Shown here one piece after another: positions 1 to 31,201 of a stretch of 64,000 nt of DNA. The notes below the pieces were generated by a model that was not told the origin of the DNA, did no database searches, and saw nothing but the letters and a program-made list of their open reading frames with translations. Origin of the DNA: Cumulibacter sp. (GTDB lineage Bacteria; Actinomycetota; Actinomycetes; Mycobacteriales; Antricoccaceae); assembly GCA_047975195.1 (NCBI GenBank), contig JBKEDB010000013.1, forward strand, positions 4,106 to 68,105, read 5' to 3'. Position numbers and translations under genes: made by a program. Every line of letters starts with the position of its first letter. Position 1 is the first letter of the stretch.

Positions 1-3000
1 GGGATATCGGCCAGGGCGGCATCAATGCGGACGTCGAGCGCGGTGAGGTCGCGAGTGTGTGCGTCGACCGAGCGCTGCGCCGCGAGTACGGCATCCGCAG
101 CGTCGCCAGCACTATTTGCCATCTGTAGCAGGGAAGTGCGCTCGCGCGCTTCCGCCATCACCGAATCGATCTGCGCGCGGCGGGCGACTATCCCTTCGGA
201 GAGTCGGTCGATGGCGGCGGGCTCGTCCGCCGATTCGAGCCGAGCGGTCAGGTAGGTAAGTTGCGCTACGTCTGTCCGCTGCAGCGCCGAGAGTGTCTCG
301 AGCGTTGTTACCCGCTCGTCGAGTTCCGCGCCGAGGGAGCGCTGTAGGTCCCGGATCGCCTGGTCAGCGAGAGCGGACGGCGCGGAATCGCCGCGCCGTG
401 TGCGCGCGTCAGCGATCTCACGTAGCTGGACGGCAGTTAGGGTGCGGTGTTCCGCGTGCGCGTCGAGCGCGGCGATCGCATTGGCGTGCGCGGCGTGAAC
501 CGTGGCGCTCGACGCTAACTGCTCAGCGGTTGCCGTGTGCTCGGCTACGGCGGCGACCGCTGCGTCGAGACGTTCGACGATCGCGCTGAGGCGCTCGGTG
601 TCGACGTTGGTGTGCTCGGCGCCGATCCGGGCGGCGACGCGCTGCAGCATGGTGTGGGTGTTCTCGACGACGAGAGCCTGCTGCTGCGCCTGCGCGGCTG
701 CTTCGGTCGCTGCGTCAGCGGCAGTGCGTAGGGCGTTGATGTGTTCGTGAGTGCTCGGGCTGTGCAGGGCGCGGGTGGTGAGACGTTGCTGCGCGGCGAA
801 GGCTGCCCGCGCGTGCTCGTTGGCTTGGTGTGCCTCCTGTTGCGCGAGGGCGTTCCGCTGTGTGGCGCGGTGGGATTCGAACTCCGCGATGGCGACCGCG
901 CTGTGCCGTTCGAGCAGTGCGAGCGCATTGTCGAGGTCATTGCGCTGGGCCCGCAGCTGGGTGGCCGCATCCTCGACGATGACCAACGCGCTGATCGGAG
1001 GCAATGTGGACTGAGGCGCCCGCGCCGAGTCGGCGGCGCGTGCGGCGTCGGAAGCTAGATTGGCCGCGCCGCGGTTGAGTGCGTCCATCCGCGCGATGAT
1101 CTCGACGAGGGCGGTGGTGTCGATGCCGTCACCGACCCGGGTGCTCAGTGCACGGGCATCCTCGAGCACCGACGTACTGTCGGCGATGATGCTGCGCGCG
1201 GTGTCTCGCGCCTGCTCGCTACGCGCGGCGAGGTCGGCGATCGGAATCGCCTTGTTCGCTACTTCGAGCGCGTCGCGGACTTCTGCGAGGTTCTGCGAGG
1301 CGGCATCGATTTCCGCACTCAGCGCAGTCCGCCCGCGCACGGAGTGGACGGTACGGACGGCATCGTCAATCCGTGCGGGGTGAGGTTGTTCGATCAGCCG
1401 GTTGGTGCGGCGGCTTAGGGTCTTGGCACGTTCGAGACGCCGTTCGGCGGCCGCTGCTGCGTTCCGGGCCGCGTCGAGCGAGGTGAGCGCGTTCTCGATC
1501 TCGACGCGCGCCGCAGGGTGGGAAGCCAGATATGTGGCCAATCGCGGTTGCAGACCGGCCGTTTCGGTGCGCAGTTGTGCAAGGTCGTCAGCGATCGTGT
1601 CCGCGCGTTCCGACTCCTGGGTGAGTAATGTGGCGATCGAGTTGACGGTGAGCGAACCGACCTTCTCTTCAGGTAGGTCCAGAACGCGCGTGGCGTCGTC
1701 GGTGTGCGCGATTCGTGCCCGCGCAGCGGCCACCTCGCCGCGTAGATACGCGGCTACCCTCTCCGGGGTCTGGTTGAGTCGCCTGGATTCGGACTCGTTC
1801 ATCGCGTCGATCGCGGTACGTGGTTGGCCCTCGCCAAGCGCCGCGTCCACGGCGGCACGAAGGTCGCGTAACTCCTCCGGCACGGTCTCGTCGGCCTCCG
1901 TGGCCTGTGTTGCCGCGATGACATCGAGCCAACGGTGCAGCCGTTGTGCCCGCCGGATTGCCTCGCCGCGAACCATCATGTCGTTGCGCGAGAGACCTTG
2001 CAGTGTCGTCTGTAGGGTCTCGACTTGCTGTCGAGGGGTGCGATCGAGTTGCGGATTCGCGCGATGTGCGCGCTGTCGCGCATCTTGCGCCTCGCGCTCG
2101 GCCTTCTGTAGGGCGCCTCGAACCTTCTCCACCTTTGCCGGAGCGCGTTCTTCGGCGATCTTGCCTGCGCGTTCGGCCGGTCCGATTCCAATGGCCGAGG
2201 CAACTGCCGCGAGCGCCGAAACCGCAGAGCGTCCGGTGAGCACGTCGGCGATCGCAGTGACAAACGGAGCGGTGGAGAAGCGCCCGAGATAAAACAGCCG
2301 AGACGCGACTCGTCGTACCGCCGGGTCGGAGGTCGCCGTTGCGGCAGGGGCTACGGTTCCCGCTGTTGACTCGGACGCCGCGGGCTTGCTGGTGACGTCT
2401 CGTTCGGATTCCGCGGTCTGCTCGGCTATGACCGGATCGAGGTCGGCGATCCGGGCCAAGATCTCGATGTTCCGGTCAGTGACCTGGCCGGCCACCAGGT
2501 CACGGGCCATTCCCGGCTGCGCGGCCTCCTGCACGGCGACCAGAGACTTCCACTTGTCCGGGCGAGCGAACCGGTCATGGAACTTACGCAGTTCGTTGGT
2601 CATTTCGACCGACCGCTCGCCTTGCCAACCGAGGCCCGTTGCAGACGCGCCGGCGAATAGTGCAGCGCCGATCGCGGAGCTACTCATGCCGCCGGCGGCC
2701 ATCATCGTCGCGGCGATTCGGCTGGTGAATACGGAGATACCTGCGGCGAAGTAGCGCCCGGACGCGAAGTCAGACAGTCCAGCGGTGAGCCGCGCACCGT
2801 TCTCCGGATGAGACTGCAGCACGGCGAGTTTCTGCTGGACTCGCTCTTCGAGTCGCTGCTGCAGCCGGATCGCCTCTTCCCGGTCGGGACCGTTGGAGAT
2901 TTCGTCAAGGGACGTAGCGATGTGTTCGCCGTATCGGGTTGCGATGTCGGCGACGGCGTGGTCGACCTCGCCGATGGCCAACCGAATCTCGCGCCGTAGC

Positions 3001-6000
3001 CGGCGAAATGGATTCAGCCGAGTGAACAGTGGCGCCGACACGATTTGTGCGGTGACGTCGAGGACCTTGTCGAGAGCCTGCTCAAGGCGAGCGGTATCGA
3101 TCGTCGGAGCAACCACAGAGGTGCCGGGCAGTGCGGCGCGTGCGCGGTCGGCGATCGCGGCGAGTTCGGTATGCAGCTCGATATTGTCCGCGTCGTCCTG
3201 CAACAGCGCGGTGATCTCGGCGATCCGTTCGGCGTCGGCCTCCTGCTGCTCGGCCCGCCGCAGCAGCAACTCGATTTGTGTGCGTTGAGCTTCGTACGCG
3301 TCTTTGGCAGCCACGTCGGTGGCGACCTGGCGTGCTCGAGCCTTCTGCGCCTGGACCCGGTTTTCTCTTTCCGCTTTCGTGCGGTCGATCCCCGGATCGC
3401 CGCTCAAACCGACCTTGCGCAGCAGCCCGCCGCCGATCGCACCGGCAACGAGGTACCCGGCCGACGCGACGCTCATCGCGACGGACTGGGTCGTCGACAT
3501 CTGGATCACGTCGATCACGTTGTGATCGGTGAGCACATCGGCGATGGGGAAGACGCCAAATGCCATCGCGCGGGCCAAAGCGCCGCCCATTGCCTTGAAC
3601 CGTACGGTCGACGCGCTGGCAATCTTGTCCAGCGAATCGACGTCCCGGCCAGGGGAGCTCTCCCGCTGACGCGCGATGTGTTCATCTACTTCGGCCTGCC
3701 CGCGCGCGTGCGCGTCAGCGAGCGCGCGAAGTCTCGCCTGGGCCTGTGTGCTGTTCGTGGACTCATCCGCATGCGCGCCAGCCAGGGACTCGCTCTCAGC
3801 CAGCGCACTGCGCACGTCGTGCAGCTCCTTGCGCAACTGTCCTGCCTGGCGGTCCTGGTCGGCAGTGCGCGGATTGCGGTCATTGGCGGTTCGGGTGTTG
3901 TCGGCGGCGCTGTGAAACTTTCGGATGTCCGCGATGACCGAGAGGGCGGTGGCGACAGCGCCGCCGGCCGCGGTGGCGATGAGTATCGGGACGGTGTCGA
4001 TAGAGCCGAGTGACATCGCCGCGCCTACACTCGCTGCGGCAGGGATCGCCTGCGCCGCCAGTGCTTTGACGGTGAACTGGCGAACCGGAGCGGGGGTGTC
4101 CGGGATAGCTCCGTTCTCGTTGGTGTTGAACGAACGCACAGCGTCCTTTAACCGAGAACTGCCATCTAGGTCCGGAATCCCCTGTAGGCGAGCGAAGTAC
4201 TGACTGACCGTATCCGGATCGAGATTGCCGTCCGAGTCGCGGTTGACGGTGAGATCGAGGCCGAGCGCGGTCAGTTCGGCGGCAACGGCGGCGCGGGCCG
4301 CAGCGCGATGACGTGGCTTGAGCGCCTCGAGGTCATCGAACCGCAGGAGCAATCCAGCGAGCCGGCCGATATCGCGCGGGCTGAGTGATGGATCGGTATC
4401 GGTGGCCACCTGAGAAATGACCGAAGGGACTTGCTGGTGCGGGTCGTCGGTCAGTAAGTCTTCGGAGTTGTTCACCGCGTCCGGCTCAAGGGTAGCGCTT
4501 GCGCGCGCAATCCCTTGTGCGATCACGATGGGTACGTTGGCGGTGGACAGATGCGTCGAGAGCGTGATGTCCACGACTGCCTCGATCGCCCGCTCGGCGC
4601 CCCTGCCCTGCATGCGGACGGGATCCGAAATATGAGTGCGGGCGATGTCGTCCTCGATTGACGCGACGGAATCGGTTGAGGTGTCGACCGTCGACAGGTT
4701 AATCGTCAATGAGCGGGTCGGCGAGGACACCGTGAGTCGAACGGTGCTGTCATCGCTGGCCGTGTGAGTGATCGTCATCCCGAGTGCTCGAGTAAGCCGA
4801 TCGAGCACGGACGCGCCGCGGCGCGGGGTGTCCTCCACCAGTGCGCGAAGCGCCGCGGGGGTGAGCGTCCCGCCATCATCTGGATCAATCGTTAGGCCGT
4901 GCTCAGCCAGTTGGCGATCAGGCGGTCGACTCGGGCCGGGTTCGGGATCATTGTTCGGGAGTGTTCCTTCGCGCCCACCCGACCCAGGCGTGCCACCGAG
5001 TAGTTCTCGGTGATACTCGACGATCGCGACCGCCTCAGCCGCGAGGGCGGGATACCGGGCGCGCGCGGCGGCCTCGATCTCCTGTCGCATCAACGAGCGG
5101 TGCTCGTCGGGTGCGAGCACCGTCATGAACGGCGCGAGGCGTGGATCGCTGGCCACCATTGACGCGAACGCCGCGCGTGCGTCTGGATTGCTGGCAACGA
5201 CATCGACGTGGGGCGGATGAGCGGCGAGAAACTCCGCGCGGGCCGCGTTGCGTGCGCTGAGAATATCCCGGCGTAGCTCGGGCGGCGCGGTCGCGGCAGT
5301 GTGGCCGGATTCGTCGAGCATGGTCCGCGCCAACTCATCGGCCCGTTGGTTCGCCTCACCTTCGACGTGGCTGCGCAAGGCGGCGACCTCCCGCGCGAAC
5401 TGGCGGCTTAGATCGCGGCGGTGCCGTCCGACGAACTCGCCGTCTTCGAGCATGGCGGCGTAGCCGTCCTTCAGTTCCAGCCCCGTCCGTCCTCGCATCC
5501 CATCGAGGTTCGCGACCGCAGAGCCGAGCCCGAGCGGATGAGTAATGCCGATCGGTAGCCCGGTGTGCTCGACTTCGAACTCCGTCGAACTCGGCGTACC
5601 ACCCAACTCGGTCCAGCGGAATTCAAGGCGCCCGTAGCCACGCTCGCTCTCTGGGCGAGGGTCGCTGTCGGCGACCGTTTCCAAAAAGCGCAACCGCAAG
5701 TGCTCGAACAGGCGGTTGGTGATCGCATGGTGTAGATCATCGTGGTGCGCGTCGAACTCGGCATTGTCGGTGAGCGCCGTTGCCGCCTGGGCCGCCAACA
5801 CCTGTTGTGCGGCCTCGTGATCGGCTCGCTGCTGGGGAGTCGCGCCGGGTGGTGGCGGGTCGGCCAAGGAACTCAGGTGCTGGGTGATCTGACTGATGAT
5901 GTCGTTCTTGGTGCGTGTGCCGGCTAGTGAAATTCCAAGATCGGCAGCGATCTGTCGCAGCGCCGGGGCGCGGTAGCTGGCGAGTGCATTGGGATGGGTG

Positions 6001-9000
6001 TTATGTCCGCGTCCGGAACGAGGATCGATCGAGCCGGGCGTGAGATGTGGATTTCCGAGGAGTTCGAGGACTCCGGGTGGACCGGCGGTCGTCAGCGCCT
6101 GGTTCAGGTCGGCCCGTCGCGCGGCGACTGTACCGTCCAAGTCGATCTGCAGGTCGGTGGCAATGCCCTCGTGTTCCTGCGCGGTACGCCGATGCGCGTA
6201 CGCCTCCTCTTGGGCGTTCTGCGCGGCTGCGCGCAATTCCGCGCTGCGAGTCGGGTCGGTTTCGGCCGCAGCGGCGGAAGTCAGCCGCTCCGACTGGCGC
6301 TGGGCTGTTTCCGCGTTCGCGATGGCTTCATCCTGTAGTGCCCGGATATCAGCGATCTGGGTGGCGAGGCGCTGACGCACGGATCTGTCGAGCAGCACCT
6401 CGTCGAGCTGCGGGAGCTCCTCATTGACGATTGCGTTCGCGATGCGTGCGAGTGCGTAATCCGCGGACCGGACCGGAACGCTCTGATAGGTCCCAGAGGT
6501 GACGACGCCGTGATCGGCATCCAGCGCCGTGAGCAGCGGATGGCCGGTGTTCGGAATATGTGTTTCCCACGGCGCGATCTCGTTCGCGAGCACGTGCGCC
6601 TGCGCCTGTGTCATGCCCTCGCGCATGGCCGCGATCTCGGCGTGTTCATGGGCGATGAGGTCGAGATCGGTATCTAGGTGGCTGGTGTCGCCGATTGCGA
6701 GGCGGAGCCACGCCTCCGCGACGTTCACGTCCCCAGCAAACGGTAGTTGGATCTCGCGGCCGTTGAAACTATGCGTGATGATGTCCCGGAACAGATGCAT
6801 CTTGATGTCCTGGATCATCCGCATCGTGACCGGGACCGGACCGTCCGCCGTGGGGATCTGCTGACCGTCAAGAGTCGCGGCAATGCGCAGCGCATCATCT
6901 GTCAACGCCGCGATCATCAGTCGCCCCCGCTCGGCGAGCTCGGCCTGCGCGCGATCCGGCGGCGCGGGCGTGGTCTGGTTGGTCCCGCCTGATGCGATCT
7001 GGGTTAGCCGTGGTGAGTTTGATTCGGCGACGGATTCGGCGCGCTCGTCACGCGCCGCAGTGCTGTCGATGTCGCTGGTGGCAGGCGTGGCGGGATTCGC
7101 TTCCTCGGTAACGGAGGCCGACCGCTCGGCAGGCGATGACGCACTCTGGGTGTCGGTTCTGGAGTCCGAGGTGTGCTGTCGTGGCGAAACCTGATCCGCG
7201 ATCCTAGCCGCAGCGCTCTTGCGCGCATCCCTTTGTTGCGCAGCTTCCTGGCGCGTCGCGGGCGCTGGTCCATCTGCTGCAGCCTGGCTCGTCAGGTGCT
7301 GCAACACGGTTACTTCGGCTACCTGGTGGGTAAGTAGATCGACATCGGCTTGGGTCGGGTCTCCACCGATGAGCCGTGCGTACGCCTCTTGCGCCGCGGT
7401 AACCGCGTGCTGCCCATCGCGCCTCACCGAAGAATCGGCCGAGAAAGTGTGCGACATCGCCGCGCTGATCTGAGTCGGCGTCAGATTGATCCCGTGAGTA
7501 TCAAAGTCGGCCGTCTGTAAGCTGTCGGCAGCCAGCCGGACGGCAGGCGGCACCACCGGCACGTTGAACGCGATCATCGGGCTAATCATCGATCCGAGGC
7601 GCGATCGCAGCGATTGTTGGGTGTCGGCGCGAGCCGTGCTGTCCGAGGTCGTCGTAACGCCGGGGGTCGAACTGTGAGCGGCTGGGCTGGCGACCGCATC
7701 TGTCTGCGTGTTCGGCCGGTCAGCGGCGGTGTTGTCCTCGGCGGTGGACGTGCCGGACTGCTCATTCGGCGTGGCCGCTATTGACGAATATGAGCCGCCC
7801 TCGTTCGCTGCTGATTCGTCGACCTGCGTGTCGACCTCTGACGATTGGTTGGCTACCGCCGGGTCGCTGGGCGTGGCGTCGGGATCTGTCGCCCTCAAGG
7901 CAGTCTCCGCAGAACTGTCCGCGGCGGTGGCCGATTCTTCGGTGGAGTTCTGCTCGGAGATCGACGTGTGCTCGGCAGAGGTGTGTTCGGAGGTGCTGGG
8001 CTCCTCGACGGCGTTCGATTCGACGGTGCTCGTTGCTTCCGACGTGACGTCGGTGTTCGCGCTGGCCGCGACCTCGGTGGCCGCGTTGCTGTTCTCGCCC
8101 GCGGCGTTGTCGGGCGCCGCATTGGCAGCTGCGGTGTCGCTCGCCTCCGCGGTAGCGGCGGTGCTCTCGGCGTTGGATGCCGGCGTCGAGCTCGTCGTCT
8201 CTGATGAGGCGGATTCTGGTGATGTGGTCTGTGATGACGTGGTTTCTGCCGACGTCGATTCGGTCGCGTTCGAACTCGATGTTGCGTTGGACTGCGAGTT
8301 GGTCTGCGATGACTGGCTACCGGATTGAGTGCTGCTTTGGCTGCTTGAGTGCGATCCCGAGCCGGTCCCGGCCTGTGTCGACTGACTGCTCGGTGTCGAC
8401 TGACCGCTTGGCGCAGCCTGGCCGCCCGGTGCGGCGGCGACCGCGCCGCTCTGCTGTCCGCCGTCGCTGGCGCTGGAGGTGTCCACGGATTGAGCCGCCG
8501 GCGTACTGGAGGAGTATTGCGTAGCGGATCCAGAATCTGTGGCGGTCGAACCTTGGGCACCAGCTTGTGACGCCTGGCCGCTGGTCTGTGCGGACGATTG
8601 CGTGCCACTGTTGCCTTGCGACGATGCGCTGCTTTGCGTCGAACTCTGCGACTGTCCGCCGTTCTGTGTCGCGCCGTCCGGGTTCGTGCTCACCGAGGGC
8701 TGCCCGGCGTTGCTGGGCTCGACACTCGGGGCTGCTGTGGTCGAGGGGCTGGGCGCGGTGATGTCGGCAGCCATCGAGGTGGCCGCAGTCCGCAGGTTGG
8801 TCATCGTGTCGGGTGAAAATGGACTCGCCGTGTTGTATCGCCCGGCCGCGGTCGCCGCCGCGCCAAGCAGAGCATCAGGGCTGAACGCTGCCGCGAGGTC
8901 CCAGTTCCCATATACCGCGCCGTTTGCGATATAGCTGCCGGTAGGGGAGGCCAGCATGTTCGTACCGGCAGAGATTGCCAGGTTAGTCATGTGCTGGCCG

Positions 9001-21623: not shown

Positions 21624-22361
21624 GTGGGCGATTTCGACCTGCCCGGTATCAAGGTGGAGTCCCAAGCATTGATGAACTTCGCTCAGGGCGCCTCCGAGGA
21701 TTACCAAACGCATGGCACGACGATCTCCGACAACTTCTCGAAGTTGGGCATGAAGGTTGGACTCAGCGGATTGCCGTCCGCAGCGTTGCTGGCCACCTGG
21801 AACAACAACGTGATGCTCGCGACGTCGAACTTCCTGATGGACGTGAACTACGGACTCCAGGCCGTCACGACGGGCGCGGTCTCTGTCGCGGCGATCTACC
21901 AGGAGAGTGACACCGACGCCGAGGCGCAGATGAACGCCGTGAACTCCGCGTTCTACCCGGTCTCCAGTGATCAGACACTCAGCGCGCAGCGAGCTGAGCA
22001 GCAGGCTGCGGCCGAACAGAACGGTGAGCAGACCGAGCAGGAGATCCTGAACGAGGCGGCCAACACCTCGATCACGGAGTCGTATGTCCCGACCGCCCCG
22101 GTGACGTCCTCGACGAACGCGTGCCGCCCGGCGGATCCGTACAGCGCTCAGGGTGCCGAGTCGCTGGTGGACCAGCACCAGGCCGATGATCAGGACGATC
22201 AGCAGAACGGTGGGCACACCCACTACGACGAGTACGAAGCTCCGGAGGACACTCCGGAGGGCGCCAACGTGCCAGGCGCGCCTGAGGCAGAACAACCTGA
22301 CGAGGTGATTCTTGCGCCGGGGGCGGAGCCATCCGGGCCGGATCCGACGGCAGTAGCGTAA
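21624..22361 (+). CDS. PE-like / ESX secretion-associated protein with a YxxxD motif
   Basis: GTG start after GAAGGAG. The helical N-domain of about 100 aa ends in 'AAIYQESD' (YxxxD, 21897-21911), followed by an acidic, Gln-rich tail. It lies directly downstream of eccC and upstream of the WXG partner. Confidence 0.7.
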   Translation: MGDFDLPGIKVESQALMNFAQGASEDYQTHGTTISDNFSKLGMKVGLSGLPSAALLATWNNNVMLATSNFLMDVNYGLQAVTTGAVSVAAIYQESDTDAEAQMNAVNSAFYPVSSDQTLSAQRAEQQAAAEQNGEQTEQEILNEAANTSITESYVPTAPVTSSTNACRPADPYSAQGAESLVDQHQADDQDDQQNGGHTHYDEYEAPEDTPEGANVPGAPEAEQPDEVILAPGAEPSGPDPTAVA

Positions 22362-22374: not shown

Positions 22375-24363
22375 ATGTCCGATAACTTCGGCGCGCCCGA
22401 TCCCGGTGCCGGGGCGTACGAGCCCGGGGTTCCAAGCCAGAGTTACTATCCGTCCTACGGTGATGCGCCCGCGCCGATTCCGGCCAATCAAGACCTGCAG
22501 TACGGCGACATCAACATGCACTACGTGGCGATCACGAAGGAGGAGCCGGACACCATCTGGGACGCGGGTTGGGCCTGGGGCCAGATCGGCACCGCACTGA
22601 CCTCAGGTGCCGACGCGATCCGGCAGCAGGGCATCACGCTGTCTTCGAAATGGGAGGGCGCGGCAAAGGAAGCCTTCCTGATGAAGGTCGGCATGCTCAC
22701 CGCAGTGCTGGATAACTGGGCTGAGAAGGCGAACGCCAACAAGTCTGCGCTGTGTTTCAATCTGTACGGCGAAGTCGTTCGCAAACGTAATGCGATGGTC
22801 ACCTTGTGGCAGGAGTACAAGGAAAGGTCTGACACGCTGCGTTCGGAAGAAAACGCGAATGACAGCATCGGGGAACTCGGCAACGACATTGTCGAAGCTT
22901 TTGGCGGCAAGGATCGCCTGGCGGAGAACCTGGAGCACTATTCGAGGCGCTCGCGGGAAGAAATTCTCACGCCGATGTCGACGGCGTACGACACTGCCTT
23001 CCAGTCCATGAGCACGGGTGCGGTCTACCAGGGCCCCAAGGACGCGCTCGTGAAAGAGTTCACGGCACCGGGAGTCGGCCCCGGCCCAGGTGCGCCGGGC
23101 GCTCCCGCGGCTCCGGGTGCACCTGCCGGAGCCGCGCCGCCCGCGCCCGGGGGGTTGAATCAGCCATTGCCGGGGGCCGTGCCTACGGCTGCGCTGATCG
23201 GCATGTACGGACGCCCGCAGTCGCCCGACGTCGGGCAGATTCGCGACCACATCATGGCGGGTTTCCGCCAGCCGCCGACGAATCCGCTCAACGAACAGGC
23301 CATGCGCGACGTGCAGCAGCACATGCTCGATCATCTGCCTGCACCCGAGGCGCCGGAAGGAATCGCCACTCCCGCGATCGCGCCCCCGCCGGTCGCTCCG
23401 GCCTTACTGCGTCCGACGAGCTCTGCTCCGGCGAACTCCGCGCAAACCGGCCGCGGTGCGGCCCCGACAGCGCCTAATCTTTCCGCCGGCAGCGCCCGGC
23501 CGGCAGCGCCCGGGATGCCCGCGGGCCTCAATGGTCGCGGCGCGGCGCCTGCGGCGCCGGGCATCGGTGGCCCGGGGGCTGGGACCCGACCGCCGACAGC
23601 ACCAGGTCTTGGCGGGCGCGGGAGCGCCAGCCCTGCTGCGCCGCCCTCGCGATCCGGCCTGGGTGCCGGCTCACCCGCCCTTGGTGGGCGCTCCGGGGCG
23701 CCCACCGCACCCGGCGTTGGTGGTCGACCAGGTGCGCCTGGCGTTGGTGGTCGGCCAGGCGCCCCCGGTGCCGGTGGTCGCCCCGCGGCACCTGGTCTCG
23801 GTGGACGGACTGCAGGTGGCCGACCAATCACGCCGCGCACGTCGCCTAACGTGCCGACGTCGCTGCAGGGCCGTCCGACGGCGCCCGGCATCGGCGCGCG
23901 CCCCGGCGCGAGCGGCAAACCCGGCGCGACCGGCAGAGCAGGAATTGGCAGTTCGGCGTCGCCACGGCTCGAGTACGGCACGCCCAAGGGCTCCGGGGCA
24001 TTGGGCGGGCGCTCCACTGCGGTACCGACGTCACGGCAGGCCAACGCCGAAGCGGCGCGTCGCGCGCTGCGTGCGTCGCTGACAGGGCGCCCCAACGACG
24101 TTGCCGGGCATCCGCAGGCCGGCGGAGGCGCGACATCCCAGCGCCAACCCGCGACCCAGCCGCACCAGGCCCGGAGGGCAGACCGTAGTCCGCGGACTCG
24201 CTCGGAGGAGAAGCCGGATGGGCAGGTATCGACGGAACTGGCGTTGGTCGGCGGCACCGAGTTGTTCGAGGCGGACGGTGCCGGTGACGGCGTCATCGCG
24301 GCGCGCACGCCTCACGAGCGCGTGACGCGATCCGGCCCCGCAATCGGCGCCAAGCGAGACTGA
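22375..24363 (+). CDS. PPE/EspB-like WXG-containing protein with a long Pro/Gly/Ala/Arg repeat tail
   Basis: N-domain 'WDAGWAWGQIGTAL...LSSKWEGAAKEAF' (W-E-G). The tail of about 400 aa has many 'GGRxGAPG' repeats. It is paired with the preceding YxxxD protein. Confidence 0.75.
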   Translation: MSDNFGAPDPGAGAYEPGVPSQSYYPSYGDAPAPIPANQDLQYGDINMHYVAITKEEPDTIWDAGWAWGQIGTALTSGADAIRQQGITLSSKWEGAAKEAFLMKVGMLTAVLDNWAEKANANKSALCFNLYGEVVRKRNAMVTLWQEYKERSDTLRSEENANDSIGELGNDIVEAFGGKDRLAENLEHYSRRSREEILTPMSTAYDTAFQSMSTGAVYQGPKDALVKEFTAPGVGPGPGAPGAPAAPGAPAGAAPPAPGGLNQPLPGAVPTAALIGMYGRPQSPDVGQIRDHIMAGFRQPPTNPLNEQAMRDVQQHMLDHLPAPEAPEGIATPAIAPPPVAPALLRPTSSAPANSAQTGRGAAPTAPNLSAGSARPAAPGMPAGLNGRGAAPAAPGIGGPGAGTRPPTAPGLGGRGSASPAAPPSRSGLGAGSPALGGRSGAPTAPGVGGRPGAPGVGGRPGAPGAGGRPAAPGLGGRTAGGRPITPRTSPNVPTSLQGRPTAPGIGARPGASGKPGATGRAGIGSSASPRLEYGTPKGSGALGGRSTAVPTSRQANAEAARRALRASLTGRPNDVAGHPQAGGGATSQRQPATQPHQARRADRSPRTRSEEKPDGQVSTELALVGGTELFEADGAGDGVIAARTPHERVTRSGPAIGAKRD

Positions 24364-24425
24364 TTGAGGTCAGAGCGCGGACGATGTCTCGTTAGGATAG
24401 TGGCGTCCATCGCAAAGGATTTCAC

Positions 24426-25928
24426 GTGACAGATCGTCAACAGCAGGCACCAGACGCCGTATTGCGCGCGCCGCGGCCGGCGGCCGAGCCGGTCGCGGCC
24501 CCGACCGAGGCGCGCTCGGAAGGTACCGCGCAGCGACCTGCTGAAGCGACGCCTGTTCCGGCTGCCGGGCAGCAGGAATCTTCGCAGCGAGAGGTCATCC
24601 AGGGACGGCGCACCGAGGCCAACACCGTGACGGCCTCGGCGTCCGCATCGTCTGCCGCGACATCCCCGATCGCACGTCGCCGCGAGGCCGCGCAGCGGTC
24701 ATCGCGTGAACTCGCCGAACAGCAGGCGATCGCGGCGGCAGCGAAGAACGCCGCACCGCCGGCCGACCCGCAGGACGATCAACGGGTGATCGAACCGCCG
24801 GTCGAAATCCGCCAACGCCGATTCGGCACCGTTCATGCCGGACAGGTCATCACAGCTGAAGGCGCGATCGTCGCTGTAGCGGCGGTTTCTCGAAGTTCGA
24901 TGGTGACCTTGTTATCGGTGGCAGCGGTCTCATTGATCGCGCTCGCCATCTGCTTCGTGCGCATTGATGGGCGATGGCTGTACGAATGGCTAGGCACCGC
25001 GGCGCGGTATCTCGCCCGGCGTCGCGTCACTGCCCTCGACGCGGCTTCACCAGGTTCAGCGATCCTGTCCGCAGTTGCGCACGGGGGAGCCTTGCGTAGC
25101 CTCGACGTCGACGGCCGTGGGGTTGCGGTGCTCACTGACTCGACCGGGTTCGCCGCGGTGCTTGAGGTGGCTCCCAGCGAGCGTGCGGATCTGAGCCGTG
25201 AACGAAGCCTGCCGTCGCTGGCTGAACTCTTGCCGCACAACGAAGCCGGCGATGTACCGATTTCGGTCCAACTCATCACGCACGTTGTACCGGCGCCGAA
25301 TGTCGCGGCTCTCGACGACGCCGCCGCCAACTCTTACCGAGAGTTGAGCGGGGGCGCCATTCCCGCTCGACGCCGCACCTGGGTGTGCGTACAGGCGATG
25401 TTTTCTGCCGATGTTCCCTCGCCGGCGACGGTGGAGCGGTCACTGCTGAACGCGGTACGGCGGGTAGAGCGCAGGATGCGCAAAGCCGGATTCCGGCCGC
25501 GTGCGCGGACGGTTCGTGAAGCTGCCGAGGATCTGGCTACGTTGATCCGGATGGATCCGGCGCAGCCAACGGGGACGTTGCGCGAAGGCTGGCGTCAATG
25601 GCAGGCGGACACTGCGATGCACGTGACGTACGGCGTGCGCGAATGGCCAGCGCTCTGCGAACGGGAGACCGCCAGTGCGTTGATCGAAGGCATCGAGTCG
25701 GTGCCCGCATTGGCCAGCACCACCTCACTGGCGGGACGCCGCGTTGGTGACTGCGTGGATGTGGAGGCGGTCATCCGATTTACGGTGCGAGAAGACTCGA
25801 CGCAGCAAACCGTCGACGGAAGCCTGCAACGAGTGCTAGCTCAGTCCGGAGCCGATCTGCGCCGACTCGATGGTGCACATCGCTTCGGCGTCGGTGCGAC
25901 GCTACCCACCGGCGGTTTCGCGATATGA
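24426..25928 (+). CDS. eccE: ESX membrane component EccE
   Basis: Disordered N-terminus, then two adjacent TM helices 'AIVAVAAVSRSSMVTLLSVAAVSLIALAICFV' followed by 'RIDGRWLYEWLGTAARYLARRR', then a cytoplasmic domain of about 300 aa. This is the typical EccE layout and position. Confidence 0.75.
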   Translation: MTDRQQQAPDAVLRAPRPAAEPVAAPTEARSEGTAQRPAEATPVPAAGQQESSQREVIQGRRTEANTVTASASASSAATSPIARRREAAQRSSRELAEQQAIAAAAKNAAPPADPQDDQRVIEPPVEIRQRRFGTVHAGQVITAEGAIVAVAAVSRSSMVTLLSVAAVSLIALAICFVRIDGRWLYEWLGTAARYLARRRVTALDAASPGSAILSAVAHGGALRSLDVDGRGVAVLTDSTGFAAVLEVAPSERADLSRERSLPSLAELLPHNEAGDVPISVQLITHVVPAPNVAALDDAAANSYRELSGGAIPARRRTWVCVQAMFSADVPSPATVERSLLNAVRRVERRMRKAGFRPRARTVREAAEDLATLIRMDPAQPTGTLREGWRQWQADTAMHVTYGVREWPALCERETASALIEGIESVPALASTTSLAGRRVGDCVDVEAVIRFTVREDSTQQTVDGSLQRVLAQSGADLRRLDGAHRFGVGATLPTGGFAI

Positions 25929-26662
25929 CCGATAAATTCGCGGACGTACGCCGCATGGTCGATATGAATGCGCCCACCCAGGTGCGGGGGGTGCGCACTA
26001 GTAACGAGGTGCTGGGTGGGGTGGAGTACACCGCCGGGGGCGCCGGCATGATTCTCGGTCGCGAGCCCGGCGGTCAGCTCGCGGTGCGCGAACTGTTCAG
26101 CAGTGAGCCACGCGAGATCCTCGCCGTCGGCACGATCGGGCTGGCCAAGGTTCTGGCCTTCCGTGCCTTGGCATTGGGAGCTCAGGTATGGGTGGAGACC
26201 CGCCGCGTCGCGGCCTGGGATGCGTTCATCCGAACATCCGCAGGTGCATCCGGCGCGATTCGAGTAGTCCGCGAGTTTCCTGATGCGCGATTCGCCAGCG
26301 AAGATCGCCCCGTGTTCGTGCTGGTAGACAGCGACTCGTCGCTCGCTGAAGATGACCAGGTAGGACTCTCGTGGACGACGGTATTGACGCTATATTCGCA
26401 ACTTACGCCGTGGAACGTCCCAGACCTGACCTACGCGGACCTGGCGATCCTGCAGAGATTGACCCCTGCCGAAGCGCGGCTGGCGGCCGGGAGGATCAGG
26501 GGAGGCGACCTGGCGCAGCGGCTCGAAGCGGTCTCTCATGAGGGGATTGGGCTGCTGTCCGGGAACAACCTGGACGTCGTCACCCTTGAGTTGACGGCGG
26601 TCGAGCGTTACATGATCGGGGACGTCAGCCGAACTCGCCGCCGTGCTGCTGCGCGGGATTGA
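25925..26662 (+). CDS. Hypothetical ESX-linked protein with degenerate P-loop-like strand motifs
   Basis: Its ATG overlaps the eccE TGA (ATGA at 25925-25928). 'ILAVGTIGLAKV' looks like a decayed Walker A and 'PVFVLVDSDSS' like a Walker B strand. Composition is protein-like. Confidence 0.6.
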   Translation: MTDKFADVRRMVDMNAPTQVRGVRTSNEVLGGVEYTAGGAGMILGREPGGQLAVRELFSSEPREILAVGTIGLAKVLAFRALALGAQVWVETRRVAAWDAFIRTSAGASGAIRVVREFPDARFASEDRPVFVLVDSDSSLAEDDQVGLSWTTVLTLYSQLTPWNVPDLTYADLAILQRLTPAEARLAAGRIRGGDLAQRLEAVSHEGIGLLSGNNLDVVTLELTAVERYMIGDVSRTRRRAAARD

Positions 26663-27047
26663 GGTCGATGAATTCCAAGCGATACTGGCGAACCTGACTC
26701 GCCGGCACCCAACTGCGGTACACACCGCGCTCGACGCGTTCTAGGCCTGCTTCGGCGGCTGCGGGCGCGTCGTTGGCCAACGACTCTACGAGCAGTTCGG
26801 AGGGTTCGGTTCGCTCGTCGAGGATAGCCACCGGTACGTCACCAACTTCTCCGATCGGCCGCACATAGTGGATCCTGTCGCACTCGGCCAATGGAACTTC
26901 ACGCACGAACTCCTCGCCAATGGGTTCGAACCCCTCACCGTCGCGCGGACTGTGCAGGCTGACGAGCTGTTCATCCTGTCCCAGATAAATCGCGGCGTCA
27001 TACTCGGTGCCGAGATAACTGGCGACGATGCGGGCGCGGGCAATCAT
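26625..27047 (-). CDS. Hypothetical acidic 140-aa protein, last gene of the espI-like operon
   Basis: Its ATG overlaps the upstream stop (ATGA at 27044-27047). Composition is diverse and non-repetitive. No motif recognised. Confidence 0.6.
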   Translation of the reverse strand: MIARARIVASYLGTEYDAAIYLGQDEQLVSLHSPRDGEGFEPIGEEFVREVPLAECDRIHYVRPIGEVGDVPVAILDERTEPSELLVESLANDAPAAAEAGLERVERGVYRSWVPASQVRQYRLEFIDLNPAQQHGGEFG

Positions 27048-27982
27048 CGCTCACCATGCCCGAATGTGGACGCCTGCACCTCATCGGTGCGAGCAATGAG
27101 TCGCCAGCCGCCGGCAGCCAGGTCGAGCATCGCGATTCGGCGTTGACCTGTTTCGCTGATCTCCCACAGCTCGGCGCCGGTCGGCAGCGGCGCGCAGTTT
27201 GCCTTGAATTCGCGGATGACCTGCGTGGGCGCCGGCCCGAACCCGAGCCCCACAAAGGGCGGCTCTTCGATAACTGAGCCGCCGACCAGGTCTCGCGCGG
27301 CGGCCGTCTGACCGCCGTACGCGTCCGCGTAGAGACAGAGTGCCAATGGACGCCAGCGTAGTGCGAAGGTGGCGCCGTACGCGTCGAGGTAACGCTCCCT
27401 CGGTAGGCCGAGGTCATCGACCAGAACGCCCGGATTTCTGAGATGTTCGACGTGCCAGTAGAACTGGCAGTATCCCGATACCGTGCGCACGCGGGCTTCG
27501 ATCATGGCCTCTACATCGGCCGGCGCGATGACCTTCTGCAGGACTAGATCGAAACGCCCCTCGGGTGTATCGAGTAGCTCCATCGGCGGTGCGGCCAACC
27601 GTGCGAGCATGCCCGACTCAAAGTAGAACGCGACGCCGAGTCCGGGGTTGATTGCCAGCCCGAACGCCGGGTCGGGCCAGGCGGCGGCGAGATCATCCAG
27701 CCGGACAATGATGCCGTGCGTCAGGTTGCCCGACGCCGCCATCGCCATGGCTTCGAATGAGGTGTACACGACAACGAAGGTTCGTTCGTCGTCGGTGTAC
27801 GTGGGCCATCGGCTCGGTTCCTCCTGCTCGAAGGCCTCCGGTGTAGTGGGCATGACGAACTGTGCGGGCATCAGCAGCCCGTAACAGCGGGCGATATCTG
27901 CCGCAGCGAACGCTTCGGTCAACTGCTCCTCGAACTCGCTGGATGCCTGCCAGGGCAGGTGCGTCCGGATCGGCCCGGTCAT
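27044..27982 (-). CDS. SseB-like N-domain protein with an unknown C-domain
   Basis: 'FVVVYTSFEAMAMA...GLAINPGLGVAFYFE' resembles the SseB family. The start at 27982 forms an ATGA overlap with the upstream stop (27979-27982). The track ORF begins at 28003. Confidence 0.65.
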   Translation of the reverse strand: MTGPIRTHLPWQASSEFEEQLTEAFAAADIARCYGLLMPAQFVMPTTPEAFEQEEPSRWPTYTDDERTFVVVYTSFEAMAMAASGNLTHGIIVRLDDLAAAWPDPAFGLAINPGLGVAFYFESGMLARLAAPPMELLDTPEGRFDLVLQKVIAPADVEAMIEARVRTVSGYCQFYWHVEHLRNPGVLVDDLGLPRERYLDAYGATFALRWRPLALCLYADAYGGQTAAARDLVGGSVIEEPPFVGLGFGPAPTQVIREFKANCAPLPTGAELWEISETGQRRIAMLDLAAGGWRLIARTDEVQASTFGHGER

Positions 27983-29334
27983 CGTCCGCCGTGCAAGGAG
28001 CATCCGAAGGCCAATGACGACAACGCGTGCCCGGCCTGCTGGGTAACTGGTTGCAGGCTGTCGAAATCAATGTAGCCGCCCGGCGAGATCGCCGGGTCGG
28101 TGGGAATGCAGACCACCGCATGGCATATCTGTTCGAGCCCGCGCTTGGTCTCTGCGACGTTGATCACGGGCTGGTCCGGCACATTGCCCATCACCACAAT
28201 TGAGCGGCTGGCGAGTTCGCCGTGCCCAGTCGCTGCGAGCCAATCGAGTGCGTTGTGGGCCGCGAGTACGCCGTCCACACTCGCCGACGTCGCGATCACC
28301 AATGCATGTGAGGCCTCGATCACGCGGCGCATGAGCGAACCGGCGATGCCGGTCCCGCAGTCGGTGACGGACACCGGGAAGTAGCGGTACAGGGCGCGCA
28401 CGGCCGCGACGTAGGTTTGCTCGCCGAACTCAGCGCTTTGTGCTGGGTTGCGCCCGGACGGCAGGATCCATACGCCGTCGTTCGTCCGGGCGATCACGCC
28501 GCGCAGCACATCCAGCGTGCCGGGATCACCCATGGACGCGATGTCGTGCGCGGAGGCGATCGGTGGCGTACCGAGTCGCAACAGAAGCGATCCGTACGTG
28601 GTGTCGGAGTCCAGGAGTAGCACGGGTTCGGCGCGCACGCGGGCGATGGTGCGCGCCAGCAGGATCGCCGAGGTCGTCTTGCCCACGCCGCCCTTGAGGC
28701 CGACGACGCTGATCCGCCGTGGCGTTTCGATCATGCTGGCGAGCGCATCCGTGGTGGTGTTGGCCGGAAGTTCTGCCGGTACCGGTCGCCCGCGCCCGAA
28801 CCAGCGTCGCTTCGGGGGACTGATGTCGGTGAGGTGTGACACCCGCGGGTCGAGATGCGGGGCGGTCGGGCGGAGATCGTCGGCTCGCCGATCGCCCTGT
28901 GCTGCATTACCCGGCTCGGTGAACTCGTGATTTATCGGATCCTGAGCGGCACCTGGGACGCCGTTGTCGTGATCGTCGAAGCCGCGTCCGGGCGCGGCGT
29001 GCTTCGGTCCAGATCGTTCAGTCGGCGCCGGGGGAGTCGCGCGTGGCGCGGGCGGCCGTAGCCGATTCTGTGGTGCATTCTCGGGCTGACGGGGGACCGC
29101 GCGCTGCAGGACGGCGTCAAAATCCGAGGGTTCTGCAGCCCCGCCTGACTGGTGCGGCGCGCCGTCGGGCTGAGGTGCGGGCGGCGCGGTCGGCGGGGCG
29201 GTGGGCGGCGGTCCCGGCGTAGACGTGTCCTGCAGGTCACCGTCGTACGCCCGGCGCGAACGTGGGGGTTGAAGCGGCGACGGCGGACGTTCGGAGCCCG
29301 TGGGGGCGTGATTCCCCTCAGGCGGTTTCGTCAT
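27979..29334 (-). CDS. EspI-like protein: Pro-rich disordered N-half plus a ParA/MinD-type (CpaE-like) ATPase
   Basis: Deviant Walker A 'VVGLKGGVGKTTSA' and 'LLLDSDTTYGS'. The N-half is Pro/Ala-rich (PPPTAPPTAPPAPQP). Start chosen at ATG 29334 (GGGAAG upstream). Alternatives are 29430 and 29532. Confidence 0.8.
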   Translation of the reverse strand: MTKPPEGNHAPTGSERPPSPLQPPRSRRAYDGDLQDTSTPGPPPTAPPTAPPAPQPDGAPHQSGGAAEPSDFDAVLQRAVPRQPENAPQNRLRPPAPRATPPAPTERSGPKHAAPGRGFDDHDNGVPGAAQDPINHEFTEPGNAAQGDRRADDLRPTAPHLDPRVSHLTDISPPKRRWFGRGRPVPAELPANTTTDALASMIETPRRISVVGLKGGVGKTTSAILLARTIARVRAEPVLLLDSDTTYGSLLLRLGTPPIASAHDIASMGDPGTLDVLRGVIARTNDGVWILPSGRNPAQSAEFGEQTYVAAVRALYRYFPVSVTDCGTGIAGSLMRRVIEASHALVIATSASVDGVLAAHNALDWLAATGHGELASRSIVVMGNVPDQPVINVAETKRGLEQICHAVVCIPTDPAISPGGYIDFDSLQPVTQQAGHALSSLAFGCSLHGGR

Positions 29335-29503
29335 GCGCTTCCCATCGAGTGGTTGGTGACTGCACGCTCGATCATAGGCGTCGATAGCGTCGGGGTCAGG
29401 CCGCTTGATCTGTGGCCTGCCTGACTGCATGGCACACGGCGATACCCGCTGCAATAATCGCAGTCGATCCCCACGAGCCTCTACGAGCCGAAGAGCGGAG
29501 CCA

Positions 29504-31201
29504 ATGGCGCAGACAATCCAGGTGGACCCCAACAGCCCCGGTTGCTATGTGAACCTCGCTGAAGCGATAGCGGAGGCGCCTACGGGCTCGACCATCCGAA
29601 TCGCTGCCGGTGAGTACCCAGAGAGCATTCGCCTGGACTCCAAGGTGCTCATCCTGGAGGGCGAACCTCTCGCCGAGGGTGGTGATGATCAGTCGTCCTT
29701 GACGACCAGAATCGTCGGCGGTGGTGGATGGGCGCCGATCGTCGAGCAGACCGGTGGCGAGTTGACCCTGCGCCATATCGTGGTGAGTGCTGCGGATGCC
29801 GACGCGGTGAAGGTCGTCGAGGGGACCCTCACGGTGGAGTCGTCGGTGTTCACCGCACGATCGGGTAACGCATTGCGGATCTCCGATGGCTCGACGTTCT
29901 CAGGTCGCGACGTGACCTTGGAGAATTCCCAGGTGGGGCTGGTCGTAGAGGACGCCGAGGGCGAGCTGATTGACGCGCACATCCGGGAGATTGGCGACGA
30001 TGGCGTCGTGGTGCGGCTCGGAGCTTCGCCCACGCTGCGCAACTGCAAGATCGCCAACGTCGGTGGTCGCGGAATCTATGTGTACGAGTCGGCCAAGCCG
30101 GTCGTCGAGGGCTGTGAAATCACCGGCAGCCGTGCCGAGGGAATCGCGATCGCCCAGGGTGGCGCGCCGACGCTGAACCTGTGCAGGGTGATCGGGGCGG
30201 GGTCTTCGGGAATTAGGTTCGGTCCCGGTACCGCAGGACAGTTGCGCAATTGCACCACCGAGCGTTGCAGCGCGCCCGAGATCGATATCGCCCAGGATGC
30301 GGACGTCGAGCGGATTGATACGAACGCGAAATCGGCAGGCTTGGGTGCCGTGGAGGCACCCAAGGGCGACCCGCAGCGAGTCGAGTCGCTGCTCGCCGAA
30401 CTCGACGGCATGGTGGGGTTGCACGGGGTCAAGGCCGAGGTCAGGTCGATTATCGACGAGATCCAGGTGAATGAATGGCGCCGTGCCGCTGGGTTGAGCG
30501 TAGGCGGCATGTCGAACCACCTCATCTTCGCCGGTGCGCCGGGTACGGGTAAGACGACAGTGGGGCGCATCTACGGTCAGCTCCTCGCAGCCCTCGGGGC
30601 GCTTCCGGGCGGACCGCTGAAGGAGGTCTCGCGTCGCGATCTGGTCGGGCAGTACGTCGGGCATACCGCAGAGAAGACCGCCGCTGTGTTCGACGAGGCC
30701 AAGGGCGGCGTGGTGTTTCTCGACGAGGCCTACACGCTCACCAGGCAGGCTGGCGGCGGCAGCAACGACTTCGGTCAAGAAGCCGTCGACATGATCGTGA
30801 AGCTGATGGAAGACATGCGTAAGGACATCGCGGTGATCGCTGCGGGGTACACGCACGAGATGCGTGACTTCCTCGATGCGAACCCCGGCCTTGCCTCCCG
30901 CTTCGTGAAGACCATCGAGTTCGAGAACTACGATGCCGACGACCTCACCAAGATCATCACCGGGATGATCACCAGCAACGACTATGCGATCGCCGACGAC
31001 GCCGTGGGGCTATTGCGCGACTACTTCGAACGGATTCCGCGGGATGAGAACTTCGGCAACGCGCGAGACGCGCGCAAGTTGTTCGAGAAGCTCCGCAAGG
31101 TCCAGGCTGGTCGGTTACGGCAGCTGGCGAGTCGTCCGGAGCTGAGCGAGCTCATCACGATCACCTCCGCGGACGTACAGGAAGCGACGAGTACGCCGTA
31201 G
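29504..31201 (+). CDS. EccA-like CbxX/CfxQ-family AAA+ ATPase fused to an N-terminal right-handed parallel beta-helix domain
   Basis: ATG 29504 follows GGAG. Residues 1 to about 290 show PbH1-like repeats (e.g. 'GRGIYVYESAKPVVEGCEITGSRAEGIAIAQGGAPTLNLCRV'). The C-half has 'HLIFAGAPGTGKTTVGR', 'VVFLDEAY' and 'IAAGY...ANPGLASRF', typical of CbxX/EccA. Confidence 0.85.
   Translation: MAQTIQVDPNSPGCYVNLAEAIAEAPTGSTIRIAAGEYPESIRLDSKVLILEGEPLAEGGDDQSSLTTRIVGGGGWAPIVEQTGGELTLRHIVVSAADADAVKVVEGTLTVESSVFTARSGNALRISDGSTFSGRDVTLENSQVGLVVEDAEGELIDAHIREIGDDGVVVRLGASPTLRNCKIANVGGRGIYVYESAKPVVEGCEITGSRAEGIAIAQGGAPTLNLCRVIGAGSSGIRFGPGTAGQLRNCTTERCSAPEIDIAQDADVERIDTNAKSAGLGAVEAPKGDPQRVESLLAELDGMVGLHGVKAEVRSIIDEIQVNEWRRAAGLSVGGMSNHLIFAGAPGTGKTTVGRIYGQLLAALGALPGGPLKEVSRRDLVGQYVGHTAEKTAAVFDEAKGGVVFLDEAYTLTRQAGGGSNDFGQEAVDMIVKLMEDMRKDIAVIAAGYTHEMRDFLDANPGLASRFVKTIEFENYDADDLTKIITGMITSNDYAIADDAVGLLRDYFERIPRDENFGNARDARKLFEKLRKVQAGRLRQLASRPELSELITITSADVQEATSTP

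Follow-up and report, generated by a model that had tools for sequence, protein, structure and literature searches.

Actinomycetes other than mycobacteria carry type VII secretion systems (T7SS) of the T7SSa kind, among them those of Micromonospora lupini and Thermomonospora curvata and the Esx system of Streptomyces, which share a core of EccB, EccC, EccD, MycP and EsxAB and have neither PE/PPE proteins nor EspG. These systems have been filed as ESX-4 or as 'ESX-4-like, ancestral' (Newton-Foot 2016, PMC4791881; Dumas 2016, PMC4779608), and the genome paper of Micromonospora lupini lists a core cluster, two mycP copies included, that matches the one analyzed here (PMC4182475). The accessory genes that surround such a core, and a giant gene beside it, are not described in the published 'ESX-4-like' classifications (PMC4791881, PMC4779608), and in the model of Newton-Foot the eccE, EccA-type and EspI-like genes are late plasmid-borne additions (PMC4791881). 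Here we analyze a type VII locus of Cumulibacter sp., made of 17 genes with intact frames grouped in the left 31 kb (positions 1-31201) of a 64-kb stretch of contig JBKEDB010000013.1; by the window we mean this whole stretch. A preliminary description, made from the sequence, had seen in it a non-canonical layout and possibly an undescribed ESX subtype specialized for very large substrates. We find that the locus is typical of a T7SS branch that is widespread, catalogued and experimentally almost untouched, and is not a singular new ESX type, and that its dead mycosin and its giant neighbor with a WXG100_2 domain are real traits of the clade.

The locus holds a complete type VII set, consisting of eccB, eccC, eccD, eccE, a single mycP, an esx pair, and genes of YbaB, ParA/MinD and EccA-type AAA+ kind; Pfam and NCBIfam searches bore out all the ecc, mycP, esx, eccA-like, EspI-like and EspL-like genes previously listed. 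The curated cut-offs are passed by EccB (14546-15967, minus strand; Pfam E 8e-84, TIGR03919 286 bits against a cut-off of 154), by EccD (15971-17413, minus strand; YukD ubiquitin-like and EccD membrane domains, TIGR03920 207 bits against 95) and by EccC (17467-21441, plus strand; TIGR03924 947.5 bits against 509 and TIGR03925 868.7 bits against 347), as well as by EccE (24426-25928, plus strand) in Pfam, with 33.1 bits against 23.7, its TIGR03923 score of 107.8 bits against 108 being borderline. EccC is one polypeptide of 1,324 amino acids (aa), a membrane ATPase with three FtsK_SpoIIIE stretches forming three P-loop domains and with a canonical Walker A motif at residue 481; a database protein of 1,324 aa is 100% identical to it, and an exact-sequence database look-up of EccB returned no match. 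The eccD start was placed at ATG 17413, which gives a product of 480 aa matching that of the relative L011, and the starts of the open reading frames (ORFs) for EccC, the AAA gene and the ParA-like gene were likewise shortened. Coordinates and strands agree with the earlier statement that eccC is transcribed divergently from eccD-eccB-esx.

Both esx genes lie on the minus strand. The product of 14055-14384 (~109 aa; Pfam WXG100 E 2e-12, TIGR03930 53.6 bits, over the cut-off) has a W-K-G motif and a C-terminal export motif of the YxxxD form, Y-N-Q-A-D. In the product of 13708-14007 (99 aa; Pfam WXG100 E 5e-6, TIGR03930 E 9e-8) W-E-S replaces W-x-G, and its score is just under the Pfam gathering and NCBIfam cut-offs. 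With EccC, with EccB, EccD and EccE, and with a WXG100 pair of which one member carries the YxxxD/E motif, the system is a T7SSa.

Among the cytosolic accessories, the EccA-type gene (29504-31201, plus strand; Pfam Beta_helix, AAA and AAA_lid_6) keeps Walker A (GAPGTGKT) and Walker B (VVFLDEA) and has the CbbX/SpoVK-type AAA+ module of EccA. The N-terminal tetratricopeptide repeat (TPR) domain of EccA is missing from it, as had been proposed: the N-terminus is a right-handed beta-helix (Beta_helix/NosD), and the EccA model TIGR03922 is matched only at positions 273-551, the AAA+ module, with 223 bits against a cut-off of 466.65. A beta-helix variant of the EccA family has already been mentioned (PMC11513918). 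The gene at 27979-29334 (minus strand; Pfam CbiA/AAA_31/ParA, with NCBIfam support; start probably at ATG 29334) encodes a protein whose N-terminal half is rich in proline and which has a P-loop domain of ParA/MinD type (KGGVGKT) at its C-terminus. A proline-rich N-terminal region followed by a ParA/MinD-type nucleotide-binding domain is the architecture of EspI, and by this architecture the product is predicted to be EspI-like. The EspL-like gene (11585-12031, minus strand) encodes a YbaB/EbfC fold (Pfam YbaB_DNA_bd E 3e-11), and a YbaB-type gene is found at the equivalent position in all related loci. The reported absence of EspG and of PE/PPE proteins stands insofar as no ORF of the locus matches these families in Pfam or NCBIfam, in searches at the sequence level only; it is qualified by the 662-aa gene described below, whose faint PPE match (E 0.013) is the only PPE trace in the locus.

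The surroundings of EccC homologues and of giant-gene homologues gave nine related loci (L001, L003, L004, L006, L007, L008, L009, L011 and the rearranged Klenkia terrae locus L002), with which all window genes were compared by tblastn; they span a metagenomic Cumulibacter-like relative, Klenkia, Blastococcus, Micromonospora and Cryptosporangium. Order and orientation are identical in nine of nine: a large gene (-), a small gene (-), YbaB (-), the S8 peptidase gene (+), two esx genes (-), eccB (-), eccD (-) and eccC (+), the last followed, again in all nine, by a gene of ~200-300 aa and a WXG100-like gene of ~600 aa. Wherever the fetched sequence extends further, eccE, a ~240-aa gene, a ~130-aa gene (-) and an SseB gene (-) follow, with the beta-helix AAA+ and ParA-like genes nearby. 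The arrangement that had seemed peculiar is thus the one its relatives share, accessories included. An apparent lack of the giant, MycP and 662-aa genes in L011 proved to be an artefact of the gene-call list and of a 200-N scaffold gap.

EccC identity among the relatives with this layout goes from 87% down to 59% and follows taxonomy, with 85% in Cumulibacter manganitolerans, 72% in Epidermidibacterium, 63-65% in Klenkia, Blastococcus and Geodermatophilus, and 59-60% in Micromonosporaceae and Cryptosporangium. Against a plasmid collection it is 51% in Nonomuraea, 45-49% in Streptomyces, 39% in a Nocardia plasmid, 28-33% in mycobacterial ESX plasmids and 24-25% for Bacillus EssC. Against PDB chains, EccC scores 1,272 bits with the Thermomonospora curvata EccC and 604 bits with EccC5, EccB scores 76 bits with EccB5 and 50 bits with EccB1, and no mycobacterial chain matches EccD at E 1e-5. 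The EccC identities and PDB scores together place the system in the non-mycobacterial actinomycete group, and the shared gene order and accessories, with an EccC identity that tracks taxonomy, point to vertical inheritance. A recent island was considered and ruled out, since synteny is conserved, G+C is flat at 0.63-0.69 and, as the preliminary description had it, no integrase or transposase is found among the ORFs scanned.

The two Klenkia terrae assemblies, L002 and L003, have loci that are 99.9% identical. L002 is without 2,071 bp, so that most of its 647-aa WXG100-like gene and the start of eccE are gone, and a small internal rearrangement breaks the frame of its giant gene; these losses reflect either strain-level substrate decay or an assembly artefact.

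Set against the described systems, the locus is closest to the non-mycobacterial T7SSa of Micromonospora, with an EccC 59% identical and the gene order of Micromonospora, Cryptosporangium, Klenkia and Blastococcus; it differs from the other non-mycobacterial systems in that its WXG100_2 module is fused to a protein of 4,648 aa. Strict mycobacterial ESX-4, regarded as the ancestral type, likewise has neither PE/PPE nor EspG, but its order is eccB/mycP/eccD/eccC/esx (PMC4779608), compared with mycP (+), esx (-), eccB (-), eccD (-), eccC (+) in the window, and it is without eccA or espI (PMC4779608, PMC4791881); neither that order nor that gene content is found here, where eccE and the EccA-type AAA+, EspI-like and EspL-like genes are added. 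Counterparts of ESX-1 components are present, namely of EspL (YbaB fold), EspI, EccA (AAA+ module) and the proline-rich WXG-superfamily substrates, whereas EspG, PE/PPE and TPR are missing and EccC is a single polypeptide. The system does not belong to ESX-1, ESX-2, ESX-3 or ESX-5, since it has no EspG and PE/PPE pair and, by pairwise identity, its EccC is 28-33% identical to those of mycobacterial plasmids as against 59-87% to relatives of the same layout. The Ecc proteins therefore nest in a clade whose core is already catalogued as ESX-4 or ESX-4-like (PMC4182475, PMC4791881, PMC4779608), and in this respect the proposed undescribed subtype falls; what survives of the proposal is that the accessory set, the giant neighbor and the dead mycosin of this clade were not found described.

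The mycosin gene (12031-13533, plus strand; Pfam Peptidase_S8 1e-25) encodes a protein with an S8 fold, a signal-like N-terminus and a C-terminal membrane helix. Fold, membrane anchor and position in an ESX locus are those of a mycosin; the D-H-S triad is lost, and the score on the mycosin equivalog TIGR03921 is 209 bits, below the cut-off of 278.75. Residue-level alignment on subtilisin Asp32/His64/Ser221 reads VAVV-S-TG, G-Q-GT and GT-A-IA at the triad positions, with the oxyanion Asn replaced by Asp, which confirms that MycP is inactive. The homologues of Cumulibacter and Klenkia are named merely 'S8 family serine peptidase' by NCBI.

This loss is not confined to the window. We aligned 124 sequences, comprising the window MycP, its 120 nearest homologues and three second-copy mycosins of related loci. 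The triad plus oxyanion residue, D/H/N/S, is intact in 75 of the 124, and a further 12 read D/H/D/S, with the triad kept and Asp at the oxyanion Asn; ~36 of the 124 are without at least one triad residue, in many different forms. The pattern S/Q/D/A occurs in the window MycP and in seven homologues of 62-100% identity, one of them the window's own protein and another that of Cumulibacter manganitolerans. Other patterns are D/H/D/A in Klenkia, G/Q/D/P in Epidermidibacterium and G/S/D/A in Blastococcus, as well as D/F/D/G and S/I/D/T. The Micromonospora copies have an intact triad. Furthermore, in Micromonospora, Cryptosporangium and the metagenomic relative L009 a second membrane-anchored S8 protein of mycosin type, its triad intact, is encoded 3' of the ~600-aa WXG100-like gene (L007 16583-17872, L008 16578-17696, L009 16752-17927); in L009 the first mycosin has lost its Ser and the second is intact. 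No second mycosin is present at the locus in the window, in L001 or in Klenkia, and the 64-kb window holds a single S8 gene, so that, compared with these two-mycosin systems, the window lineage has a single, catalytically dead mycosin.

In a comparison of the window with L001, whose MycP likewise reads S/Q/A at the triad, the ratio of nonsynonymous to synonymous substitution rates (dN/dS) is 0.23 for MycP, 0.21 for EccB, 0.19 for EccD and 0.26 for EccE, within a range of 0.09-0.26 across the components, MycP included; dS is ~1 and near saturation, which makes these values approximate. MycP is consequently under purifying selection despite its lost triad, and is conserved as something other than a protease. 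Such retention fits the experimental observation that secretion proceeds with MycP1 and MycP5 made catalytically inactive, mycosins stabilizing the membrane complex (van Winden 2016, PMC5082899). In both cases a T7SS keeps a mycosin that has no catalytic residues; in contrast to those laboratory-made variants (PMC5082899), the loss seen here is natural, hits all three triad residues and recurs in varied forms across the clade. No description of natural pseudo-mycosins was found in the searchable literature.

The giant gene lies at the left end of the locus (1-9839, minus strand). From ATG 9839 its frame is uninterrupted over 3,279 codons to the window edge, and its 3' end lies past window position 1. 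An independently assembled database protein is identical over all 3,279 residues and has a full length of 4,648 aa, which gives a gene of ~13.9 kb and shows that the flanking gene of more than 9.8 kb noticed in the preliminary description is real. Residues 21-165 form a WXG100_2 domain (Pfam E 1e-17), the only confident Pfam domain, which includes a W-E-G motif and whose last part, by hydropathy, is a strongly hydrophobic helix (~122-150). A low-complexity stretch rich in Ser, Thr and Gln spans residues ~350-760, and the remaining ~3,900 residues are Ala-rich with a few more hydrophobic segments. A single-sequence AlphaFold model of residues 941-1900, of low confidence (predicted local distance difference test, pLDDT, 46), is mainly helical. 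Across all 4,648 aa, Pfam finds no toxin domain and, besides WXG100_2, just a weak Rho_N match; self-BLAST detects no internal repeats, and profile and sequence searches against the PDB return chance-level matches only.

Every related locus has a large gene at this position, its product measuring 5,174 aa in L001, 3,580 in Klenkia, 3,677 in Blastococcus, 6,327 in Cryptosporangium and 1,344 in L009. The giants of related genera share only the WXG100_2 N-terminus of ~350 aa and cannot be aligned beyond it. The Blastococcus giant, which carries a Gln_amidase domain, aligns with that of the window over the first ~350 residues and one module of ~130 residues only. In Micromonospora the N-terminus of the window giant is matched by a separate gene of 663 aa, adjoining one for a 4,644-aa protein with YwqJ-deaminase, Gln_amidase and calpain-type domains. 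The N-terminal 345 aa, used as query in an exhaustive search, retrieved 439 representative proteins; among the best 150 of the 439, 31 have at least 3,000 aa and 93 at least 1,000 aa, and the longest has 7,568 aa. A contig scan based on the alignment of giant N-termini, with very narrow patterns, found three loci in Blastococcus and Klenkia and is no measure of how far the linkage spreads.

Several further observations concern these large proteins. The ~130-residue module occupies residues ~962-1095 of the window giant (about nucleotides 6555-6956) and occurs twice in the Blastococcus giant of L004 (841-939 and 1082-1215); it contains IAHEHAEIAAMREG and has no family match. On the Streptomyces sp. 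NBC_01176 plasmid NZ_CP108601.1 (L010), a hypothetical gene of 59,022 bp (313719-372740) encodes 19,673 aa and adjoins a small gene, a YbaB-family gene and a T7SS core of EccB, EccD and EccC, so that the linkage of giant, YbaB and T7SS extends to Streptomyces; the N-terminus of the 19,673-aa protein has no similarity to the window giant detectable by tblastn. Genes of SUKH-3 immunity type, together with a small YwqJ-deaminase gene, interrupt the T7SS loci of Micromonospora, Cryptosporangium and L009, in some instances between eccB and eccD (L007 7718-8461 and 19663-20528, L008 7145-8519, L009 22489-23505); the window has no such insertion.

T7SS polymorphic toxins are the nearest described proteins to compare with the giant. 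They include the LXG/Lap proteins of Firmicutes, EatA/TapA1-2 of mycobacteria (PMC13444075) and the WXG-type and giant multi-toxin proteins of actinobacteria (PMC3482391), the last being the only specific literature found on giant T7SS-linked actinobacterial proteins. According to Benedict et al. (PMC13444075), T7SSa toxins that have Tap partner genes upstream of them occur widely in Actinomycetota, and their typical length is 400-1,000 aa. The window giant shares with them an N-terminal targeting domain of the WXG100 superfamily (the WXG/LXG type), two small genes directly upstream, extreme divergence past the N-terminus, and relatives with deaminase, deamidase and calpain domains and SUKH genes. 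It differs in having no recognizable C-terminal toxin or adjacent immunity gene, in its 4,648 aa as against 400-1,000, and in the hydrophobic helix after its targeting domain.

Two further products of the locus are candidates for the same pathway. The 662-aa protein (22375-24363, plus strand, recognized by alignment) has, besides its faint PPE match, one to WXG100_2 (E 0.02); a WXG100-like helical N-terminus is followed by a long tail rich in Pro, Gly and Ala, and a C-terminal motif is conserved. The Cryptosporangium and Micromonospora homologues of the protein score as WXG100_2, and it may be regarded as a candidate substrate. The 532-aa protein (9850-11448, minus strand) has no Pfam or NCBIfam match and was recognized by alignment and tblastn, with matches at the equivalent site in L001, L003, L004, L006, L007, L009 and L011. 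Its N-terminal domain of ~110 aa, with a PWGxDxxGQxF motif, is homologous to the proteins of 111-123 aa whose genes, in relatives, separate the giant gene from YbaB; a tail rich in Gly, Ser and Pro comes after the domain. We regard the protein as a candidate targeting partner or substrate.

The remaining genes of the locus are conserved and less readily interpreted. The gene after eccC (21624-22361, plus strand) encodes 245 aa with an acidic tail and no recognized domain, and is retained 3' of eccC in close relatives; a frameshift suspected in it was ruled out, since GTG 21624 with an upstream GGAG gives a 245-aa product like those of the relatives. A second 245-aa gene (25925-26662, plus strand), recognized by alignment and synteny, lies 3' of eccE in every relative whose fetched sequence extends there; its product has no Pfam match and only chance-level matches in profile and sequence searches of the PDB, and its single-sequence AlphaFold model (pLDDT 33) is unusable. 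A conserved 140-aa gene (26625-27047, minus strand), whose copies in relatives are Pfam UCP033725, and an SseB-N-domain gene (27044-28003, minus strand; Pfam SseB E 2e-10), also kept in relatives, complete the set.

To the right of the locus lie an M23 peptidase gene, DUF808, fbiC, a tRNA-Gly gene, metabolic genes and dnaK-grpE-dnaJ; the housekeeping genes among these, fbiC and dnaK-grpE-dnaJ, favor a chromosomal, vertically inherited locus. The M23 peptidoglycan endopeptidase gene (31303-32529, minus strand) borders directly on the locus at its right; Klenkia has no such gene at that place, so that any functional tie between it and secretion through the wall is unsupported. The tRNA-Gly(CCC) gene (37444-37517, plus strand), 6 kb outside the locus, is the only RNA gene detected in the window. 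A methyltransferase ORF (36727-37533, minus strand) runs into it at its upstream end and must have its true start further downstream. A 642-aa ORF (54593-56521, minus strand) with a strong Pfam NAD-GH match (E 3e-151) is antisense to dnaK (54599-56452, plus strand; HSP70 E 4e-248); this 'glutamate dehydrogenase' ORF looks spurious, the real gene being dnaK with grpE and dnaJ after it.

We consider it probable that the locus is a chromosomal, vertically inherited T7SSa of a Cumulibacter-like member of Geodermatophilales, with a conserved non-mycobacterial architecture. EccB, EccC, EccD and EccE would make up the channel and motor in the membrane, with the pseudo-MycP, by analogy with inactive MycP1 and MycP5 in mycobacteria, serving only as a structural cap that stabilizes the complex. 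The EccA-type AAA+, ParA-type, YbaB-type and SseB-type proteins would handle substrates in the cytoplasm. Cargo would be the WXG100-superfamily proteins encoded around the machine, that is the Esx dimer, the 662-aa and 532-aa proteins and the giant, which this T7SS probably exports or anchors. The WXG100_2 N-terminus of the giant would act as its targeting domain, probably presented as a helical bundle with the ~110-aa domain of the 532-aa protein and the YbaB-type protein, as in LXG/Lap and EatA/TapA, and the hydrophobic helix that follows may hold the giant at the membrane or envelope. The task of the giant could be an envelope or surface function or antagonism.

Several points weigh against this picture. 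Export of the giant is what we infer from its N-terminal domain and gene linkage only, and its several hydrophobic segments could mean that it is an integral membrane or envelope protein and not a released substrate. Its YxxxE motif is at residues 83-87, not at the canonical place after helix 2, and no SUKH or other immunity family occurs among the Pfam matches in the window. The placement near ESX-4 follows the literature (PMC4791881, PMC4779608), a second, active mycosin could sit elsewhere in a genome of which 64 kb are visible, and the near-saturated dS given above counts here too.

A different reading, which we hold to be unlikely, is that of a distinct, unnamed type VII subtype adapted to substrates of several thousand residues, with the dead mycosin, the beta-helix EccA, SseB and YbaB as parts of it. 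It draws on the giant WXG100_2 gene being linked to this layout in all related loci, on the 19,673-aa gene beside YbaB and the T7SS core of the Streptomyces plasmid, and on an accessory set unlike those of ESX-1 to ESX-5 in systems that published work lumps as 'ESX-4-like' with their accessories undescribed (PMC4791881, PMC4779608). The architecture is, however, widespread and vertically inherited, and its core is catalogued (PMC4182475); L009, with an equal layout, has just a 1,344-aa gene at the giant position, and in Micromonospora the match to the giant N-terminus is a separate 663-aa gene. The intact mycosins of Micromonospora and Cryptosporangium indicate that a dead protease is not tied to giant substrates, and there is no sign that the machine itself is modified for size. 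The specialization for very large substrates proposed earlier is inferred.

That the giant, instead of being a released effector, is a membrane-anchored structural or envelope component, for instance a wall-spanning or surface fiber and possibly a part of the apparatus like EsaA/YueB in Firmicutes, seems to us comparably doubtful. It would account for the conserved hydrophobic helix directly after WXG100_2 and the further hydrophobic segments, for an Ala-rich protein that is mainly helical where modeled (941-1900) and has a long Ser/Thr-rich linker, for a fixed position beside the core genes, and for the failure to find either a toxin domain or an immunity gene. It would be unusual, though, for a part of the apparatus to vary from 1,344 to 6,327 aa and to be unalignable past ~350 residues, the relatives have toxin-type enzymatic domains, and one Klenkia terrae assembly has an apparently rearranged giant with a core intact except for an N-terminally truncated eccE. 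A decaying system, of which the dead mycosin would mark a non-functional relic, is very improbable: MycP has kept neither any triad residue nor the oxyanion Asn, and one WXG100 gene reads W-E-S, but 17 of 17 frames are intact, the Walker motifs of EccC (A) and of the AAA+ protein (A and B) and the P-loop of the ParA-like protein are kept, the components, MycP among them, are under purifying selection, S/Q/A is kept in the seven homologues mentioned above, which shows long-term retention, and mycosin catalysis is dispensable for mycobacterial secretion (PMC5082899).

Returning to the vertically inherited T7SSa, we suggest tentatively, as a possibility still short of an even chance, that the T7SS of Geodermatophilales and their allies run with a repeatedly dead mycosin and handle WXG100_2 proteins of 3,000-6,000 residues (~19,700 on the Streptomyces plasmid), that export or anchoring of giants and the EccE, EccA-type, EspI-like and EspL-like components are ancestral, and that MycP was structural from the start.

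The locus is ordinary for its lineage and should consequently not be reported as a new ESX type; three by-products of the analysis are of use to the type VII field. The presence of EccE and of EccA-type, EspI-like and EspL-like proteins in a vertically inherited non-mycobacterial system argues against their late addition on mycobacterial plasmids. The natural pseudo-mycosins that a whole clade keeps under purifying selection replicate in evolution the laboratory result that MycP is required as a structural element and not for proteolysis. Finally, the WXG100_2 domain, which is regularly part of, or linked to, proteins several thousand residues long, raises the question of how a machine thought to move small helical dimers copes with them, and Cumulibacter, Klenkia and Blastococcus provide culturable and non-pathogenic hosts in which this question of giant cargo can be tested.

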